Source of the DNA: Escherichia coli | GTDB taxonomy: Bacteria > Pseudomonadota > Gammaproteobacteria > Enterobacterales > Enterobacteriaceae | DNA length: 64,000 nt | Assembly (NCBI RefSeq): GCF_048403405.1 | Contig: NZ_CP183131.1 | Strand: one strand, 5' to 3' | Shown: positions 35,029-42,860 of the stretch, piece after piece | Position numbering within the stretch: position 1 is the first letter of the stretch | Layout: the number at the start of each line of letters is the position of its first letter | Translations under genes and position numbers: made by a program | The notes under the pieces: generated by a model | Databases searched by the model: none | Told to the model about the DNA's origin: nothing | The model's input: the letters and a program-made list of their open reading frames with translations, nothing else

Positions 35029-36072
35029 TTTTTCTGGTTTCAGTACGCGAGATACGACAAATCTTCTGTCTTTTTCCCATTTAACTAATTTTGTATACAG
35101 TTCTGTAGTTTCTCTACCTTCTTCTCCTTTAACGAATACAATTGATGAATTCGTTGCTTGTGAGGTGAGTGTAGAATAACTTTTGGCTTTAATTAAATAT
35201 TTGCATCCAAGAGATTCTATCGTTTCGATAATTTTTTCATCAAAGTAGCCACTATCCATTCGAAATAAAATTTCTAAATCGTCTGATTTGATGTTAGCAA
35301 CAATTTCTTTGATCATTTCCGCAGCACCGTTTGCAGTGTAAGTATTGCCACTTCTTACAAATCCGGTAACATATGCTTTTAATTCGTCGCAAAATGCAAA
35401 TTGGATATTGTAGCATCGGTTTCCCAGTTTCTTAGGATTATATCCTTTTGACGCACCTTCTTGATGACCTTCTACGTTAATTACACTACTATCAATATCA
35501 ATCGTAATGGATGTCAATTTACTTTTAGTGAGCAGTTTTTTAAAGACTTTAAAATTAATGTCTCTAAACATTTGGGTTGTCTTGAAGTTGAAGTTTCCTA
35601 GAAACCGTGACACTGTTTCAGGTTCTTTTACGGAAATATCAAACTCGTTGACGAGGGGATCATTTTGAAGTAGCTTTAGACGTTCTAACTTATCAATGCC
35701 AATGAAGTGACCGCAGAGCATGGTCTTTATATGATTCATCTTGATTTTATTTGTTGAGTCATTATCAAATACGAGGTCATTTTCAATAAAATCAAAAATC
35801 CCATTGCTTTTTGCATTCTCAAGGAGCAGAAAAAGACCTGCATTTGATGTTAGATTCTTAGCTTTGAAATCAATTTTATTAATCATAATTAGAACCCCTT
35901 TTTACTACTTTTCTTACTATTATTTTACCATATATCGAGTCATAAAAGCTGATAATTTAACATATTTTTGAGCACTTTTCTTTCACCCAATGGGTGAAAG
36001 CTGAATTTCGAAGGAATGCATATTTATCAAGGCTTTGATTATGCTTTTTGAAGTACTGACGTAGAATCTAGG
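35029..36072 (-). mobile_element. ISEcp1 (IS1380 family), 3'-truncated by IS903
   Basis: IRL CCTAGATTCTACGTCAGTACTTCAAAAAGC ends at 36072. The transposase ORF (35014..35886, start at 35886) matches ISEcp1 Tnp (MINKIDFKAKNLTSNAGLFLLLENAK...) for about 286 of 420 codons, to the IS903 end at 35028/35029. Confidence 0.9.
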
Positions 36073-37118
36073 TGTTAGCCACTTTAATGTCAGGAAGCTT
36101 AAGCTCTGTTAGTGTTTTGGCTATTCTCTCTCCTCTTGGAAGACTGGTTGAAAGAGCCAGGAATATTTCCAATAACCCATTAAGTCAATCCCTCTACACT
36201 GGGCGCACCGATGAGTTTGGCCAAATAGAGTTTGCTTTACGAATGATGCAAGCTGAAACAGGCGCCATAGTAGGTCGCATAGGTGATGCATCAAATCGGC
36301 TTAGCGAACACACCCGAGGCCTACTAAAGGATATTGAGTCAAGCAATGTACTTACAGTTGAGCAGCAGGCAGAGACAGATCAAATAGCAACGGCAGTAAA
36401 CCAAATGGTGGCAAGCATTCAAGAGGTTGCGAGCAATGCACAGCATGCTGCAGATGCGGCCGGAAGAGCAGACACTGAGACGGCATCTGGCCAGCGTCTG
36501 GTAGCCCACACAAGCCAGTCAATCACTGCCCTTGAAGGTGAAATTAGGCAAGCCACTCAGGTTATTCATGAGCTTGAAGGTCAAAGTAACGAGATATCAA
36601 AAGTTCTTGACGTTATACGAGGGATCGCCGAGCAAACGAATTTGTTGGCACTCAACGCAGCAATTGAGGCCGCGCGTGCTGGTGAGCAGGGGCGTGGTTT
36701 TGCTGTTGTCGCCGATGAGGTTCGCAGTCTTGCTGCTCGCACACAGCAATCGACAACGGATATTCAAAGCATGATCAGCGCTCTACAAGAGCGAGCGCAA
36801 TCCGCTGTTACAGTCATGGAGCAAAGTAGTCGGCAAGCGCACACGAGTGTAGCTCACGCAGAGGAAGCAGCTACAGCTCTTGATGGAATTGGCCAACGCG
36901 TTAACGAAATTACCGACATGAACGCGCAAATAGCGACTGCGGTCGAGCAGCAGGGAGCAGTAAGTGAAGACATAAACCGCAGTATTATCAATATACGCGA
37001 TGCTGCTGATACCAATGTACAGACCGGGCAGAATAATTTGCAAAGTGCGAAATCTGTCGCTCAGTTAACTAGCGCTCTGAGCGAACTGGCAAAACAGTTT
37101 TGGGAAAAACGAGGATAA
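36073..37118 (+). pseudogene. mcp: methyl-accepting chemotaxis protein, 3' part
   Basis: TM2/HAMP and the highly conserved MCP signalling domain ([37 protein letters not shown]). The apparent GTG start of the track ORF is created by the ISEcp1 junction. Confidence 0.8.
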
Positions 37119-37265
37119 CGCTTTTCAGTATCTCGACAGGGATAACTTACTTTACCATCGGTTATCCCTTTTAGCCGCACAAATTTTAGCCATGGCTTTT
37201 CAGGAAGTCAGGGCTATCAGAATGGCCTTAGAAAGCCTAGTCAAAGAGCTGTCACGAGAACACCG

Positions 37266-38180
37266 TTAGCTTAGCGTACGATTTTTTCCGAATTCTGCGG
37301 TTCCCCCTCCAGGGAAGGATTCGATAGTGACTCCACCGAAGGTGCCAAGGATTTCCGATGCCGCTTTATCAGATCGAGTTTTGCGTTGTTCTGAGGCGTC
37401 AAAGTTACGAAGCAATTTGAGCTGAACATCCTTATCCTGGAGCACGATCAGGGGCATTGGCGCGGTAACGGTTTTGAGTACCCCTGCGGCCATGACGTTT
37501 GCCACCGGTTGAACCTTTACTTCCCTTCGCTCCCGGAGATAAGGCTCCGGGGTGCTGGCGATCTTCTGGATAAGCTGCTCCAGGGGAAGTTGATAGTCTG
37601 GCCCAGATCGCTCCAGCTCCTCTCTGATGCGTTGCAAAAGCTCCTCTTTTACGGGCTTCTTCAAGGAGTCCTTCCGTTGCCAGGTGAAGCGGATAGAGTC
37701 GATGTCGCCATTGGTATAGCACCGAATTTGTCTGTAAAGGTGGAGAGTCATGACACCAGGGCAGTCCGCTCGAAGTGCTTCAAACCTCTCTTGCCTGGTG
37801 GGGTACGTCGAGATAATGAACTCCTCGATACCAGCTTTGGCCGCGTTGATGCGTTCAACCGTCGCCGCAATTTCGTCAGCTACACCAATCCTGGAAGGGG
37901 AGAACCAGAGTACCCCCACGGTGCGCCTGGCAGACTTCTGCGAATAGTCTGGGTTGATGTGAAGATCTCTGTAGCTGTGCGCTGCCAGCTCAAGAGCTTC
38001 GCGCCCAGTTTGTTCAGTTACGACAATCTTGTTGACGGGCTCGTTCTCCATTCCTTTTCCGGTAGGAGGGATGGCCGCAACTTTTGCGTACCGTGGCGGT
38101 AGTCGTTTGATAAGAGAGGACAGGTTCGTTAAGTCGCGGCACATGGCCGAGAATTGTTCTGATATGAAGTTTTTAGCCAT
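37266..38180 (-). CDS. Tus-family replication terminus-binding protein, C-terminus altered by transposon insertion
   Basis: Blocks align to E. coli Tus: RRTVGVLWF vs VRLPGVLCY, CPGVMTLHLYRQ vs LPGLITLNAYRT, VKVQPVANV vs VKVQPIARV, APMPLIVL vs CPTPLIAL. The last 13 codons (GGTAEFGKNRTLS) are read from the Tn IR. Confidence 0.75.
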   Translation of the reverse strand: MAKNFISEQFSAMCRDLTNLSSLIKRLPPRYAKVAAIPPTGKGMENEPVNKIVVTEQTGREALELAAHSYRDLHINPDYSQKSARRTVGVLWFSPSRIGVADEIAATVERINAAKAGIEEFIISTYPTRQERFEALRADCPGVMTLHLYRQIRCYTNGDIDSIRFTWQRKDSLKKPVKEELLQRIREELERSGPDYQLPLEQLIQKIASTPEPYLRERREVKVQPVANVMAAGVLKTVTAPMPLIVLQDKDVQLKLLRNFDASEQRKTRSDKAASEILGTFGGVTIESFPGGGTAEFGKNRTLS

Positions 38181-38237
38181 GCTGCCGCCTATGTGTGGGT
38201 TTGTTCTAACAGTTCATTGGTTACATAGTAGACAGAT

Positions 38238-38459
38238 TTAGACCATCATGCAACGAGGGGGAGGGGCAAGAATACGCCTCCGCTTCGCGTCGGCGGGTGC
38301 CCTGTTTGACCTTCGTGTGTGAGATTAGATTGAGAAAGAGAGAGAAAGAGAGAAAAAGAGAGAAAGAAGAAAAGCGCGGGGCAAGCCAGAAATGTGGCTG
38401 AGGGGGACTGCTGGGGTGGGGCTGGCACCCTCTATACCCCACTTTGCATGATGGTCTAA
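38238..38459. repeat. 16-bp perfect inverted repeats enclosing G-rich and polypurine tracts
   Basis: TTAGACCATCATGCAA (38238-38253) and TTGCATGATGGTCTAA (38444-38459). Interior has GAGGGGGAGGGG, a polypurine run of about 55 nt (38321-38375, GAGAAAGAGAGAGAAAGAGAGAAAAAGAGAGAAAGAAGAAAAG) and GGGGTGGGGCTGG. Confidence 0.8.
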
Positions 38460-38504
38460 CTTTGTGGTTATAGGACGACTTTTAGAGTGCCTAGATTTGC
38501 TCGA

Positions 38505-38996
38505 TTAGGACAAATTTCGGTCCATCCACGCTGATTGGCGTAGCAGCGCGATGGCATCAGAAGGGGTAACTTTCCATGCGTTGGAAAGCTGGCGAACTGC
38601 GAAGACTGCGAGCTCCATTCGGTCGTCATCATTGATGAAATTCTGGAGCTGGTTTCCTCGCTCACTAAGGATGATCGCAACACCGGCCTTGCCGTTGTTG
38701 TAAACCGCAAAGCTCTTATTCTTCGCGTCGCCGTGATAGGAACCCTCAGCCTTGCTACGCAAACCAAAGAGAACGCTGCAAAACGCCGTCAGTTCGCCGC
38801 GAGTGAGCTGCACCGTGATCTTGCTTTTCCAGTCTGGGCTGGACCCCGATGCCCTGATCGGCGCAATCTCGATGCTGACCGTAGGATATTCACCTCTGGT
38901 TAGCGTGTGTTGCACATTCAGGCCGGTGCGTTTCGCGGGGTCCTTCTGCCAGTCTGAGAAAAATTTGAGACTTTCGCCGTAGGATTGTTCTGTCAT
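38505..38996 (-). CDS. hypothetical protein
   Basis: 163-aa ORF overlapping the exonuclease stop by 4 nt. No motif recognised. Confidence 0.5.
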   Translation of the reverse strand: MTEQSYGESLKFFSDWQKDPAKRTGLNVQHTLTRGEYPTVSIEIAPIRASGSSPDWKSKITVQLTRGELTAFCSVLFGLRSKAEGSYHGDAKNKSFAVYNNGKAGVAIILSERGNQLQNFINDDDRMELAVFAVRQLSNAWKVTPSDAIALLRQSAWMDRNLS

Positions 38997-39862
38997 TCCA
39001 AATTACCTTTGCTTTGAAGCTCCTGGAGCTGGACCACGAGGTCACGTTGGACTTTGGCTATCTCTGTCACCAAGTCGGCGGTGGCAATAGCGTCGGTCGC
39101 TGCTGAATGGGCTCGACCTTTCCAGCTCACACCTGCCTCGCAGGTGGCATCCGCAAGTGAGATTGTGCCGTGCCGGTTGGTTGAGCCAAAGGCATCAGCC
39201 GCCAGCTTCATCGCGCACAGACAGTTCTGCTCTTGCCACCAAGAGAGTTGGTCTCCAAATGCACTGGCTGTTTGCCTCAACATCCTACTGTCGAAACTGG
39301 AGTTAAATATCACCAGATGACGGCCCGACAAAAGCCGGGCGAGAGCTGGCGCAACTTGAGTCCACGTAGGCTCATTCGACAGCTCAGTCTCGGTGATGCC
39401 ATGAACACCCATTGCCTGAGGGTCTATTTCCACGGTTGGCCGTAATCTGGTGCAGAGGAGAACCGCGCCTCTGATGTCAGTAACAGCCAGCTCGATCACC
39501 TGGTCTCTTTCACCAAGTCCGGTCGTCTCGGTATCGAGAACCAGAGGTTCCAGAGCGACCCACCTTTGTGCCATGACAGAGGCCTTTGCCAGGTTGCTAC
39601 GCATTCTTGCCTTGACCGAAAGGATGGATTGCGCCCTTATTTGCTTTTGTGATGCCGGTGAACAACCCCTTCTCCGCATTGGTTGGCAATCTGCTATCCG
39701 GTACACTCCAAATTGGCCACCATACCCGTTTTTGTAGAACGAAACTGGCTCTACTCCTGGCTTAGGCTTCATCCGAAATTCGTCCCTGAGCCGTCCTTTT
39801 GAAAAGCACCTATCGGCTTTCATGGCTTCGGCTCTGGCAAGTTCGAGTTCTTCATCATTCAT
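38993..39862 (-). CDS. DEDDh 3'-5' exonuclease (DnaQ/epsilon-like) with N-terminal extension
   Basis: ExoI LVLDTETTGL, ExoII-like FNSSFDSRML and ExoIII HSAATDAIATADL motifs. 289 aa. Confidence 0.75.
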   Translation of the reverse strand: MNDEELELARAEAMKADRCFSKGRLRDEFRMKPKPGVEPVSFYKNGYGGQFGVYRIADCQPMRRRGCSPASQKQIRAQSILSVKARMRSNLAKASVMAQRWVALEPLVLDTETTGLGERDQVIELAVTDIRGAVLLCTRLRPTVEIDPQAMGVHGITETELSNEPTWTQVAPALARLLSGRHLVIFNSSFDSRMLRQTASAFGDQLSWWQEQNCLCAMKLAADAFGSTNRHGTISLADATCEAGVSWKGRAHSAATDAIATADLVTEIAKVQRDLVVQLQELQSKGNLE

Positions 39863-39866
39863 GCTG

Positions 39867-40877
39867 TTAATCCGCTATATCGAGGCGTTGGCTCGCTCTC
39901 TTCAAACGCTCATCGCCGCGTCTGTCATATTTCTGGGTAGTTGCAATGCTTGAGTGGCCCATTGCGTCCTTCACGGTCACAATATCCTCACCGTTATCCA
40001 GCATCGAGGAGGCAAAGGTGCGTCGCAGGTCATGGGGCGCAAACATCTCCAGACCGGCTTCAACTCTTCTGGTCTCCAAGATGTGGTAGATGGCCTGATC
40101 CGACATCCGCTCTCCAGTCACATCATCAAACCGCCTGATCCTCGGGAATAAAGGCCCTTCATGCGTTCCTCGAACCTCTTCAACCCACTTATCCAGTCTT
40201 TTCCATGCGCCACCAGGCACATACGCCATTCTCTCTTTGTTGCCCTTGCCAAGAACCTTGAGAGCGCGGTCCTTGTAGATCATGCTTCCCATGTCCAGCG
40301 CAACGATTTCCGAGCGGCGCAAGCCACACCCGAGGAGCACCCCGAGAATGGCCGCATCCCGAAGCCCTTTGGCGCTTGAATCACTTTCACATGTGAAAAA
40401 GAGGCTGCGAATCTCATGGCGTTCAAGTGCCCGCCCTTTAGGAAGTCGAGATCCACGTACTGAACGGACTTGCTTAATGTGCTGGAAGCTATCCGTATCA
40501 ATTTGCTTCATCGTCCAGGCTTCAAGAGCCACCCCTTTGAGCGCTGACAGGTAGGTGTTGATCGTTGCCGGAGCCTTCCCTGCATCCCCCAGCATTTCCA
40601 GCACCGCCAATATGTGGTGCCGCCTCATTGAGCTCCATGCACAGTCACGAAGGTTCTGAAACCCGATCATCTTGGCGACAATGTTGAGGAATGAGCTCAT
40701 GGTCTGCCTGCTTCGCTTTGACCCGAGGCTCACCAGATAGGCGACGGCGGGGTTGTCCTGGATGTTCCGGAGCGAGCTCGATGACGGCAACAGTTCACCG
40801 CGAATGCTTTGTTCTGCCGGAACATTTACTTTCGCATGTGAAACTAGCTCTTCCTTGTCATTGTTTGTGTCGTGCAA
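39867..40877 (-). CDS. int: tyrosine site-specific recombinase (XerC/D-like integrase)
   Basis: 336 aa. Catalytic region GLRRSE..., HDLRRTFAS and GHSSIATTQKYDRR (R-H-R-Y). Contains two copies of the parS-like palindrome in its coding sequence (40385-40398, 40840-40853). Confidence 0.8.
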   Translation of the reverse strand: MHDTNNDKEELVSHAKVNVPAEQSIRGELLPSSSSLRNIQDNPAVAYLVSLGSKRSRQTMSSFLNIVAKMIGFQNLRDCAWSSMRRHHILAVLEMLGDAGKAPATINTYLSALKGVALEAWTMKQIDTDSFQHIKQVRSVRGSRLPKGRALERHEIRSLFFTCESDSSAKGLRDAAILGVLLGCGLRRSEIVALDMGSMIYKDRALKVLGKGNKERMAYVPGGAWKRLDKWVEEVRGTHEGPLFPRIRRFDDVTGERMSDQAIYHILETRRVEAGLEMFAPHDLRRTFASSMLDNGEDIVTVKDAMGHSSIATTQKYDRRGDERLKRASQRLDIAD

Positions 40878-41714: not shown

Positions 41715-42035
41715 TTACTGGCCGAGCATCCCAGCCAAGGTGGTCTGCTGGCCTTCGCTACAAGGTGCAAATCCGGCAAAAGCACCGGCATTAACCTTGA
41801 GCTCATCAAAGCGTCCATCGGTGTCCCGGTAGTACACCTTACGTTTTCCAATTCCACCTTCGAGGTTTGCGGCCAACCAGGCGATCACTGCATCAGCATC
41901 GTTCGTAACTGATGCTCCCTGATCCAGATCGATAAGTACCAGGTGGGTGTCCGTCTGGAGTGCCACTTCAAAGGTCGCTCTTACATCAAAAATCACTGGT
42001 CGCGCTCCTTGTAAAAAGTGGGCATTCAGCACCAC
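41715..42035 (-). CDS. hypothetical protein
   Basis: 106-aa ORF (GTG start in the track; true start uncertain). First gene after the divergent promoter region 42036-42257. Confidence 0.4.
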   Translation of the reverse strand: MVLNAHFLQGARPVIFDVRATFEVALQTDTHLVLIDLDQGASVTNDADAVIAWLAANLEGGIGKRKVYYRDTDGRFDELKVNAGAFAGFAPCSEGQQTTLAGMLGQ

Positions 42036-42116
42036 CTATCCTATTCCAAAAACTCTACTTTTTCAAAGATACATTTTAATAAGTAGAACAACAGCAAGAG
42101 GAACTCAAATTTATTT

Positions 42117-42151
42117 ACCGTAATTATCATAATTACGGTAATACGGTAATT
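42117..42151 (+). repeat. 9-bp repeat cluster related to the kfrA-upstream array
   Basis: ACCGTAATT ATCATAATT ACGGTAAT ACGGTAATT. Includes the 21-bp perfect palindrome CCGTAATTATCATAATTACGG (42118-42138). Lies in the divergent promoter region. Confidence 0.75.
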
Positions 42152-42257
42152 TTACAGATTTGGATGGAATGGTATAAGATGTCTCGCTGGAACATACTTG
42201 CTGAAAAAACGCTTAACAACGATAGTGAAAACATCATGTACAGGTGCGAGAGATAAT

Positions 42258-42860
42258 ATGTATAAGAGCCTTGAAGATCTGATGGCGGGTATTTACGAGA
42301 TGGCAGCGCCAGATGGCATCATCTGTAACGAGGTTTCCAAATTCCTTGCGGCCAACCAGGTCAAGCCGGAAGACATAAGCTCTGGGATCTGGTTTTTCCT
42401 GTGGCTGAAATCAGCTCCCAAGGATGCGAAGCCAATCCAAAAAGAAATCCCCGGATTTGGAGTTGTTCTCAACATGCCGACTTATGGCGGAACGCTCAAC
42501 GAAGCAATCACAGGGTTGATCGAGAACGAGTGCCGTCAAATAGAGCTCGCTGAGGGACATCCGAGCCTTGAGGCTTGGGTTGAATCAGTATTAGCCGGTC
42601 GAGATGACGGAGAGGAAAATGAAGCTGCGGCCAATATCGTGGATCTGCTTAATGGGTGTCACGACCTACTGGATACAGCAATAATCAATTACCTTTTTAA
42701 GGTGGGAAAAATCAACGAGCAAGAGATTTTGTCGCTCATCTATTATGGAGAGCTATGTGACCACTCTCTTGTCGGTACGCCTTTTTCAACGTTACATATC
42801 CCGAGTGAAAATAACGTCCACGAACGTAACATCATCCCCATTAAAAAAGGAGCCAGTTAG
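42258..42860 (+). CDS. hypothetical acidic protein
   Basis: Start taken at MYKSLEDLMAG (42258) after GAGAG. 200 aa. No motif recognised. Confidence 0.5.
   Translation: MYKSLEDLMAGIYEMAAPDGIICNEVSKFLAANQVKPEDISSGIWFFLWLKSAPKDAKPIQKEIPGFGVVLNMPTYGGTLNEAITGLIENECRQIELAEGHPSLEAWVESVLAGRDDGEENEAAANIVDLLNGCHDLLDTAIINYLFKVGKINEQEILSLIYYGELCDHSLVGTPFSTLHIPSENNVHERNIIPIKKGAS

Follow-up and report, generated by a model that had tools for sequence, protein, structure and literature searches.

Structure of the locus

The DNA analysed here, a 64-kb stretch of an Escherichia coli plasmid (NZ_CP183131.1, assembly GCF_048403405.1; referred to as the window), represents the backbone of a conjugative plasmid of the IncC (IncA/C2) type. 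Just upstream of its gene for a Tus-family protein, a non-coding segment is bracketed by two perfect 16-bp inverted repeats, in a region that is 100% identical to Klebsiella plasmid pKP22-5. Tus bound to its replication terminus (Ter) sites is a textbook polar fork barrier, and the two repeat arms are considered here as candidate Ter sites of the plasmid protein. The locus contains the following features.

37266..38180, minus strand: tus (annotated 'ter'), encoding a Tus-family replication terminus site-binding protein of 304 aa
38225..38253, minus strand: putative sigma-70 tus promoter, with -35 TTGCAT (38253-38248), a 17-nt spacer and -10 TACTAT (38230-38225), the hexamers being read from the sequence
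38238..38253, minus strand: proximal arm, a Ter-like site; perfect 16-mer, TTAGACCATCATGCAA on the plus strand and TTGCATGATGGTCTAA on the tus-sense strand
38254..38443, no strand assigned: spacer, the proposed interior of a fork trap; 190 bp, with 71 G, 52 A, 37 C and 30 T on the plus strand
38321..38334, plus strand: conserved block GAGATTAGATTGAG (CTCAATCTAATCTC on the tus-sense strand), adjoining the GA tract, from a MAFFT alignment of 11 lineages
38332..38374, plus strand: pure purine (GA) tract of 43 nt in units of about 10 bp, with a 25-nt perfect mirror repeat, AGAAAGAGAGAAAAAGAGAGAAAGA
38444..38459, plus strand: distal arm, a Ter-like site; exact inverted copy, TTGCATGATGGTCTAA on the plus strand

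As stated in the initial annotation, the arms are exact reverse complements of each other around 190 bp. Outside the 16-mer, their pairing continues to 29 nt at 86%. No other perfect inverted repeat in the window reaches 14 bp with arms up to 500 bp apart, and block-shuffled controls that preserve composition gave a mean of 0.125 inverted-repeat seeds. The segment is held in a 324-bp gap (38181-38504) between the stop codon of an open reading frame (ORF) of 163 aa and the ATG of tus, both genes being on the minus strand, with 57 nt from the end of the proximal arm to the ATG. The same gap is found in about 970 PLSDB plasmids and is unannotated in every one. Two ORFs within the segment (73 and 60 aa, minus strand), previously dismissed as low-complexity artefacts, are indeed non-coding, since indels of 8-40 bp among IncC variants fall inside them.

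The plasmid protein matches the E. coli Tus structures 1ECR/2I06 over residues 10-252 (phmmer E = 2.6e-21) and the Pfam family Ter, PF05472 (E = 3.4e-46; 158 bits against a cutoff of 22). Judged by these matches, the plasmid gene is a genuine Tus homologue. In the alignment to E. coli Tus it has kept E49, I79, K89, F140, G149, R198 and the strand R232-x-V-K235-V-Q237-P (RxVKVQP). These are reportedly DNA-contact or lock residues of Tus (Kamada 1996, Mulcair 2006), and several of them are invariant in the alignment of Tus homologues.

Conservation of the motif upstream of tus

One genome per species was searched with the alignment of Tus homologues and individual contigs were added, giving 37 tus loci from plasmids, genomes and metagenomes with 36-99% protein identity. 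In 32 of these, NATGWTGRTYTA is present on the tus-sense strand 26-106 nt upstream of the start codon, reaching loci with about 41% protein identity; the chance expectation is about 3e-4 per locus. The 15-nt consensus of the motif upstream of tus is TGYATGATGGTYTAA. A TG preceding it is kept in 27-28 of the 29 distinct sites, and the flanks are unconserved. The motif accompanies tus into unrelated contexts in which all of the neighbouring genes differ. Chromosomal-looking loci (Moritella, Thiopseudomonas, Denitrificimonas and Marinomonas) have the single proximal site alone.

Sites vicinal to tus, on its upstream side, are a published route to the Ter sequence of a species and to the rest of its trap (PMC8707476). 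The site described here has a conserved position and strand and a conserved overlap with -35/-10-like hexamers upstream of tus, which by sequence makes it a vicinal Ter candidate. Neither the window nor two whole plasmids, one IncC (116.8 kb) and one IncA (126.9 kb), has any other site with two or fewer mismatches to the arm. An additional Ter-like sequence within the exonuclease gene, TTGCCTGAGGGTCTAT at 39412-39427 on the plus strand, was rejected; it has three mismatches, breaks invariant positions and has a chance expectation of 0.57 per window. This three-mismatch copy of the arm also occurs in another IncC plasmid.

A second, inverted copy of the motif is present about 90-270 bp further upstream in a clade with approximately 55% or more protein identity, comprising elements of IncC, IncA, Edwardsiella, Photorhabdus, Xenorhabdus, Marinobacterium, Alcanivorax and Pseudoalteromonas, and also Aliagarivorans. 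The inverted second copy and a conserved CT/GA tract are confined to this mobile clade. In the cassettes of the first eight of these groups, the distal arm is invariant and the flanks diverge. IncA and a distant Edwardsiella plasmid have interiors with 69-78% identity to IncC and large indels, and both arms are still perfect. Similarity between lineages ceases about 6 bp past the distal arm, where unrelated genes start (IncA, Edwardsiella and others). Based on the perfect arms and this boundary, the conserved module is therefore tus together with its upstream region through the distal arm.

There are departures from this arrangement within Xenorhabdus. In Xenorhabdus bovienii, a partial distal arm, TTAGACCATCATGg, is accompanied by an unrelated interior of about 90 nt without a GA tract, and in X. 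thailandensis the distal arm has been lost and the proximal site alone is retained. The interior in Xenorhabdus hominickii (locus L009, ~2269-2447) is inverted relative to the arms and tus, with an alignment score to IncC of 65 when flipped and 14 in the same orientation, against a shuffle maximum of 20. This state is an evolutionary inversion across a 15-bp inverted repeat.

Aliagarivorans taiwanensis (locus L034, ~2120-2400) has three Ter-like sites, one distal and inverted and two proximal in tandem, 25 nt apart (TTGCATGATGGTTTAA and TGGCATGATGGTTTAA), with the same pyrimidine tract between the sites. In Marinobacterium aestuariivivens, a single 413-kb contig carries two cassettes with tus, about 356 kb apart in direct orientation. 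The doubling may come from duplication of the element or from terminal redundancy in the assembly of a megaplasmid, or the location may be chromosomal.

Similarity to E. coli Ter and the tus promoter

E. coli TerB, AATAAGTATGTTGTAACTAAAGT, is followed by 10 nt and then the tus ATG on the same strand, a junction confirmed in 5,423 genomes. The plasmid consensus aligns to A-G-T-A-T-G-T-T-G-T-A-A-C-T-A-A with one gap and a different 3′ core, and a G equivalent to G6, which pairs with the C that is flipped in the lock, is present in 28 of the 29 distinct sites. Common to the plasmid motif and E. coli Ter are the 5′ half, G-Y-A-T-G-W-T-G, and the 3′ CTAA(A). In addition, the Moellerella locus has an inverted pair, TAGACCAACATACTA / TAGTATGTTGGTCTA, in which both arms have changed together. 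The 5′ half of this site is identical to TerB positions 5-13 (9/9) and its 3′ half is that of the IncC motif, therefore the variant bridges both. As a sequence intermediate, it supports homology of the plasmid motif and E. coli Ter.

The proximal arm overlaps the putative -35 element and the spacer of the tus promoter. In all two-armed lineages, a -10-like hexamer follows 16-18 nt after T/CTGCAT (TACTAT, TATAAT, TAAAAT, TATTAT, TATAAG or TATTAA). In E. coli, a Ter site within the tus promoter leads to autoregulation (PMC10331603). By analogy, the location of the proximal arm implies autoregulation as at TerB, with the plasmid Tus presumably repressing its own synthesis because its site covers the -35 element and spacer.

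Position on the plasmid and GC skew

The pair of arms is unique on each plasmid. Its distance from repA is 16-17 kb, in the direction taken by the counter-clockwise fork. In the IncC plasmid NZ_CP050162.1, cumulative GC skew has its minimum at 3.7 kb, beside repA, and its maximum at 100,085, with the distal arm at 100,282; in the window, the maximum is at 38,652. In an IncA backbone free of resistance islands, the skew climbs steadily from 3.7 kb, past the point opposite the origin, and levels off at 104-110 kb. Beyond the pair (110,286-110,568) it declines, with a mean of +0.074 before and -0.016 after. The IncA genes tus-kfrA-uvrD-traFHG share their strand with most other genes, yet the skew differs across the pair. 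In the IncA plasmid NZ_LR890183.1 (L052-L054), approximately 88% of the annotated genes are on the repA strand (clockwise) and the skew rises near-monotonically from 3.7 to about 105 kb, suggesting strongly asymmetric replication that is co-oriented with transcription. The skew profile fits one long and one short replichore that meet at the pair.

A proposed fork trap with its own Ter pair

It is probable, from the comparative evidence above, that the plasmid-encoded Tus has its cognate Ter sites in the two arms and that arms and tus make up a self-contained cassette, Ter(inverted)-spacer-Ter-tus. We infer that the arms would serve as a minimal fork trap as well as the tus operator, with binding, polarity and arrest deduced from the sequence comparisons and the skew. 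The initial annotation had listed a replication-pausing or terminus region among its possibilities, pointing to H-DNA or a G-quadruplex beside the Tus homologue. The direction was right, in that the arms themselves are Ter-like; the suggested mechanism lacks support, there being no canonical G-quadruplex (four runs of three or more G with loops of up to 12 nt) on either strand of the window.

Both TTGCAT (position-6) ends face the spacer. With the non-permissive face placed as in TerB, this opposed geometry would let forks in and not out. The fork that TerB blocks is the clockwise one, which comes from the upstream side of tus and meets the position-1/6 end (PMC8707476). Tus would bind each arm as a monomer, and the TTGCAT end, by the same analogy, would be the non-permissive, C-flipping face. 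Both non-permissive faces would then point into the 190-bp spacer, so that a fork from either side would pass the first site and stop at the second. Since the pair is approximately 16-17 kb counter-clockwise of repA/oriV, the fork on the short arm would be expected to arrive first, cross tus and the proximal site and park at the distal site. The fork on the long arm would copy the other 85-90% or so of the plasmid, co-directionally with about 88% of genes, and fuse with the parked fork. The proximal site, as the equivalent of TerB, would act on tus as its operator and on forks as a barrier. Since about 88% of IncA genes are clockwise, such a terminus would keep most replication co-directional with transcription.

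A number of points weigh against this interpretation. The alignment to E. coli Ter requires a 1-bp gap and core positions 14-16 differ (GT-C versus TAAC), and His144, of the cytosine pocket in E. coli Tus, is an Arg in the plasmid Tus. A consensus promoter and terminator scan of the region called nothing, the proposed promoter scoring 8/12, below the threshold of 9/12. Support from GC skew is modest; in IncA the maximum extends as a plateau over 6 kb, part of the local peak comes from the G/C asymmetry of the element itself, and the sequence downstream of tus could differ in its history. For a two-sided trap 16 kb from the origin to work, IncA/C plasmids would have to initiate bidirectionally, which is assumed here. 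Some of the two-armed cassettes are on large contigs (413 and 326 kb, Marinobacterium), and a complete trap would be expected to be harmful if these were chromosomal. Binding, footprint or fork-arrest data for the plasmid Tus or its sites were not found in the searchable literature.

The spacer

The spacer is strongly strand-asymmetric throughout, and the G-runs reported for it in the initial annotation are present. That annotation also described an uninterrupted purine tract of about 55 nt at 38321-38375. This is broken by T at 38325, 38326, 38330 and 38331 and by C at 38375; the 43-nt run that remains is still the longest in the window, the next-longest purine runs being 26 and 23 nt. The run is preceded by GAGATTAGATT, which includes the four T. 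After the arms, the portion of the spacer that is best conserved across lineages is the pyrimidine tract with CTCAATCTAATCTC, as read on the tus-sense strand. Among IncC plasmids the gap varies in length from 306 to 346 bp, and all of this variation is in the copy number of the GA unit of about 10 bp.

Given the 25-nt perfect mirror repeat in the tract, H-DNA is possible. It is conceivable, although doubtful, that Ter(inverted)-spacer-Ter-tus is the portable, ancestral form of Tus/Ter, from which chromosomes later moved the second Ter away, and that the purine/pyrimidine spacer (the CT/GA tract and CTCAATCTAATCTC) is not mere filler; it would then be a functional fork-fusion element, acting through H-DNA/triplex or as the binding site of some factor.

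The whole element folds with z = -4.6 on the plus strand and -4.8 on the minus strand, and the interior alone with z = -0.9 against shuffles, therefore the whole-element scores are due to the arms alone. A GC hairpin upstream of the proximal arm was rejected as a conserved structure, as it was seen in about half of the ten lineages folded and was mostly no stronger than shuffles (z -2.7 to +1.4). A relic of an IncA-type spacer is present in the E. coli plasmid NZ_CP100990.1 (locus L055, ~1370-1545), where the GC hairpin, GAGATTAGATTGAG and the GA tract, without arms and without tus, are stranded between IS421 and IS26.

Alternative explanations

On the far side of the gap from tus, the flanking block contains the following genes.

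38505-38996, minus strand: 163-aa hypothetical protein, the ORF bordering the 324-bp gap
38993-39862, minus strand: 3′-5′ exonuclease
39867-40877, minus strand: tyrosine recombinase

The arms could be operators only, binding Tus, or Tus with a partner, to regulate tus transcription, with no part in stopping forks. The distal copy would then make repression stronger, by looping for instance, or by blocking transcription that reads through from the int-exo operon. Such a function is consistent with the overlap of the proximal arm with the putative -35 element and spacer, and with the retention of the proximal site alone by chromosomal homologues. It does not account for the turnover in GC skew at the pair in two plasmid lineages, for the trap geometry of the inward-facing TTGCAT ends or for the conservation of the lock and DNA-contact residues. 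Tus binds Ter as a monomer and is not known to loop DNA, which counts against repression of this kind. Although autoregulation through a promoter Ter site is established in E. coli (PMC10331603), a solely regulatory function is thus unlikely. Another plasmid regulator, rather than Tus, might use the arms as operators to control tus and its neighbours, perfect spaced inverted repeats being typical of repressor sites. However, the motif stays with tus where all of the neighbouring genes differ, its sequence, position and orientation are like those of E. coli Ter, and each arm is asymmetric instead of being a palindromic pair of half-sites, making this very unlikely.

The remaining explanations treat the arms as the ends of a structure or of a mobile segment, and had been proposed in the initial annotation. 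A small RNA or long hairpin closed by the arms agrees with the folding of the whole element (z = -4.6 and -4.8) and with the joint change of both arms in the Moellerella locus. Nonetheless, the fold signal comes wholly from the arms, the purine-only tract is unable to pair within its G/A-rich strand, and the interior tolerates a 40-bp change in length, inversion and replacement. Most tus homologues are single-armed, with no partner for a stem, no promoter or terminator was called, and a scan of 37000-40000 on both strands with the Rfam 15 covariance models found no match at E <= 1. A structured RNA is accordingly highly unlikely. With inverted repeats on either side of approximately 200 bp, a gene downstream of them and a tyrosine recombinase at a distance of 1.4 kb, the locus recalls the architecture of fimS, and the interior in X. 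hominickii is flipped relative to the arms and tus; the arms might therefore be crossover sites at which the recombinase flips a promoter-bearing 190-bp segment or resolves multimers. Against this, a synthetic flipped query across the junctions matched 0 of 995 IncA/IncC plasmid assemblies, leaving one distant lineage that is fixed in the flipped state, and the segment does not include the tus promoter elements, which are located in the proximal arm and downstream of it. The arms are also retained in lineages without an int gene nearby, and the known recombination hot spot of IncA/C plasmids, RecHS, is elsewhere. RecHS has been mapped experimentally to a 56-bp fragment between divergent ORFs, with a 14-bp inverted repeat and a 6-bp spacer (Hegyi 2017, PMC5587640). 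Its architecture is found in the window at 42054-42087 and 42115-42141, upstream of the int operon, between the ORFs at 41715-42035 (minus strand) and 42198-42860 (plus strand). RecHS resembles the arms in being a conserved inverted repeat that occupies a non-coding gap in this backbone block; it differs from them in sequence and spacing and is 3.6 kb away. A function in recombination or resolution is extremely unlikely. Finally, perfect 16-bp terminal inverted repeats around a short non-coding segment are what a miniature inverted-repeat transposable element (MITE) would have. The element is, however, single-copy in the window and in whole plasmids and is therefore not considered a MITE; copies in E. 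coli are one per genome and all on plasmids (0 of 5,426 chromosomes), and there are none in phages. The flanks, ACAGAT and CTTTGT, show no target-site duplication. The comparison among IncA/C plasmids that had been suggested as a check on a MITE found the element in essentially all IncA and IncC plasmids, at a constant place and always attached to tus, so that insertion of this kind can be virtually discounted.

Relation to known systems

A fork trap formed by the arms and tus would have parallels in several known systems. Compared with TerB-tus of E. coli, there is likewise an asymmetric site directly upstream of a Tus-family gene, on the same strand, in the same orientation and overlapping the promoter. 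In contrast, the plasmid core is one base shorter, the ATG is 57 nt away instead of 10 nt, the partner site is 190 bp off instead of hundreds of kilobases and the protein is only distantly related.

The terminus of plasmid R6K, as described by Horiuchi and Hidaka in 1988, reportedly consists of two Ter sites in inverted orientation, close together. R6K and the IncC plasmid would share an opposed Ter pair with a short gap, on a conjugative plasmid, in a trap that is asymmetric relative to the origin. R6K uses the host Tus and E. coli-type Ter, whereas the IncC plasmid encodes its own Tus and has a divergent site; in addition, one of the proposed IncC sites would double as the tus operator, and the two are separated by a conserved purine/pyrimidine spacer. 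The R6K terminus is mentioned in PMC10331603. With terRL-terRR of R1/IncFII and with the Pseudoalteromonas chromid tus beside ori2, replication is kept quasi-unidirectional by a trap close to the origin (PMC10331603, PMC7858055). The IncA/C arrangement is similar, with a terminus on one side near the origin (16-17 of 117-127 kb) and a skew that fits a long and a short replichore. It differs from R1, where the sites use the host Tus and are in the origin region, and from the Pseudoalteromonas chromids, where the ter sequence was not identified. A Pseudoalteromonas locus in the present set was considered as the resident chromid tus, which would have given ter2, and was set aside; as its neighbours are toxin-antitoxin and ABC-transporter genes, not repA/parAB, it is probably not the chromid tus. 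Type I chromosomal fork traps, as in Edwardsiella tarda and Dickeya (Toft 2021, PMC8707476), also have two Ter sites only, one of them vicinal to tus. They span 18-56 kb or more opposite oriC, as opposed to about 0.2 kb on the plasmid, and have E. coli-like Ter with 74-83% identity to TerB.

Tus/Ter, the inverted Ter pair of R6K and autoregulation at TerB mean that the proposed cassette is already known in kind. The divergent site, the compact and self-encoded two-site cassette and the conserved spacer appear to be new. Plasmid-borne, mobile tus genes have been noted and their domestication into chromosomes proposed, without plasmid Ter sites in the main text (Galli 2019). Outside the Enterobacterales, the E. 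coli consensus failed to find ter, as in Pseudoalteromonas (Xie 2021), and a 2023 review marks such sites with a question mark. The plasmid tus gene is unmentioned in the AcaCD regulon paper, and no description of Ter sites for IncA/C plasmids or for a plasmid Tus was found in the searchable literature, subscription-only journals being outside the search.

Now that a 15-nt motif and a 200-bp cassette with two sites are defined, the plasmid-domestication hypothesis can be tested directly. The cassette would be a natural minimal trap, and the motif could be used to find Ter sites in other replicons that carry tus. IncA/C plasmids are major vectors of multidrug resistance. If the proposed trap operates, their replication would be strongly asymmetric and co-oriented with about 88% of genes, and tus with its sites would influence the control of copy number, the formation of multimers or plasmid stability, an effect that Tus/Ter has on plasmid R1. 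If the pair is orthogonal to that of E. coli, it could also be used as a site-specific fork barrier.

Plasmid context

The plasmid Tus, at 304 aa, is longer than the canonical 291 aa. Backbone homology stops at approximately 37308, right at the canonical tus stop codon, with foreign DNA beyond, and the 13 extra codons arise because the ORF runs on into this DNA. The usual kfrA-uvrD-traFHG continuation is not beside tus in this plasmid. The foreign DNA there contains a fragment of a methyl-accepting chemotaxis gene (HAMP and MCPsignal; 36072-37118), with IS903B and blaCTX-M-14 further on.

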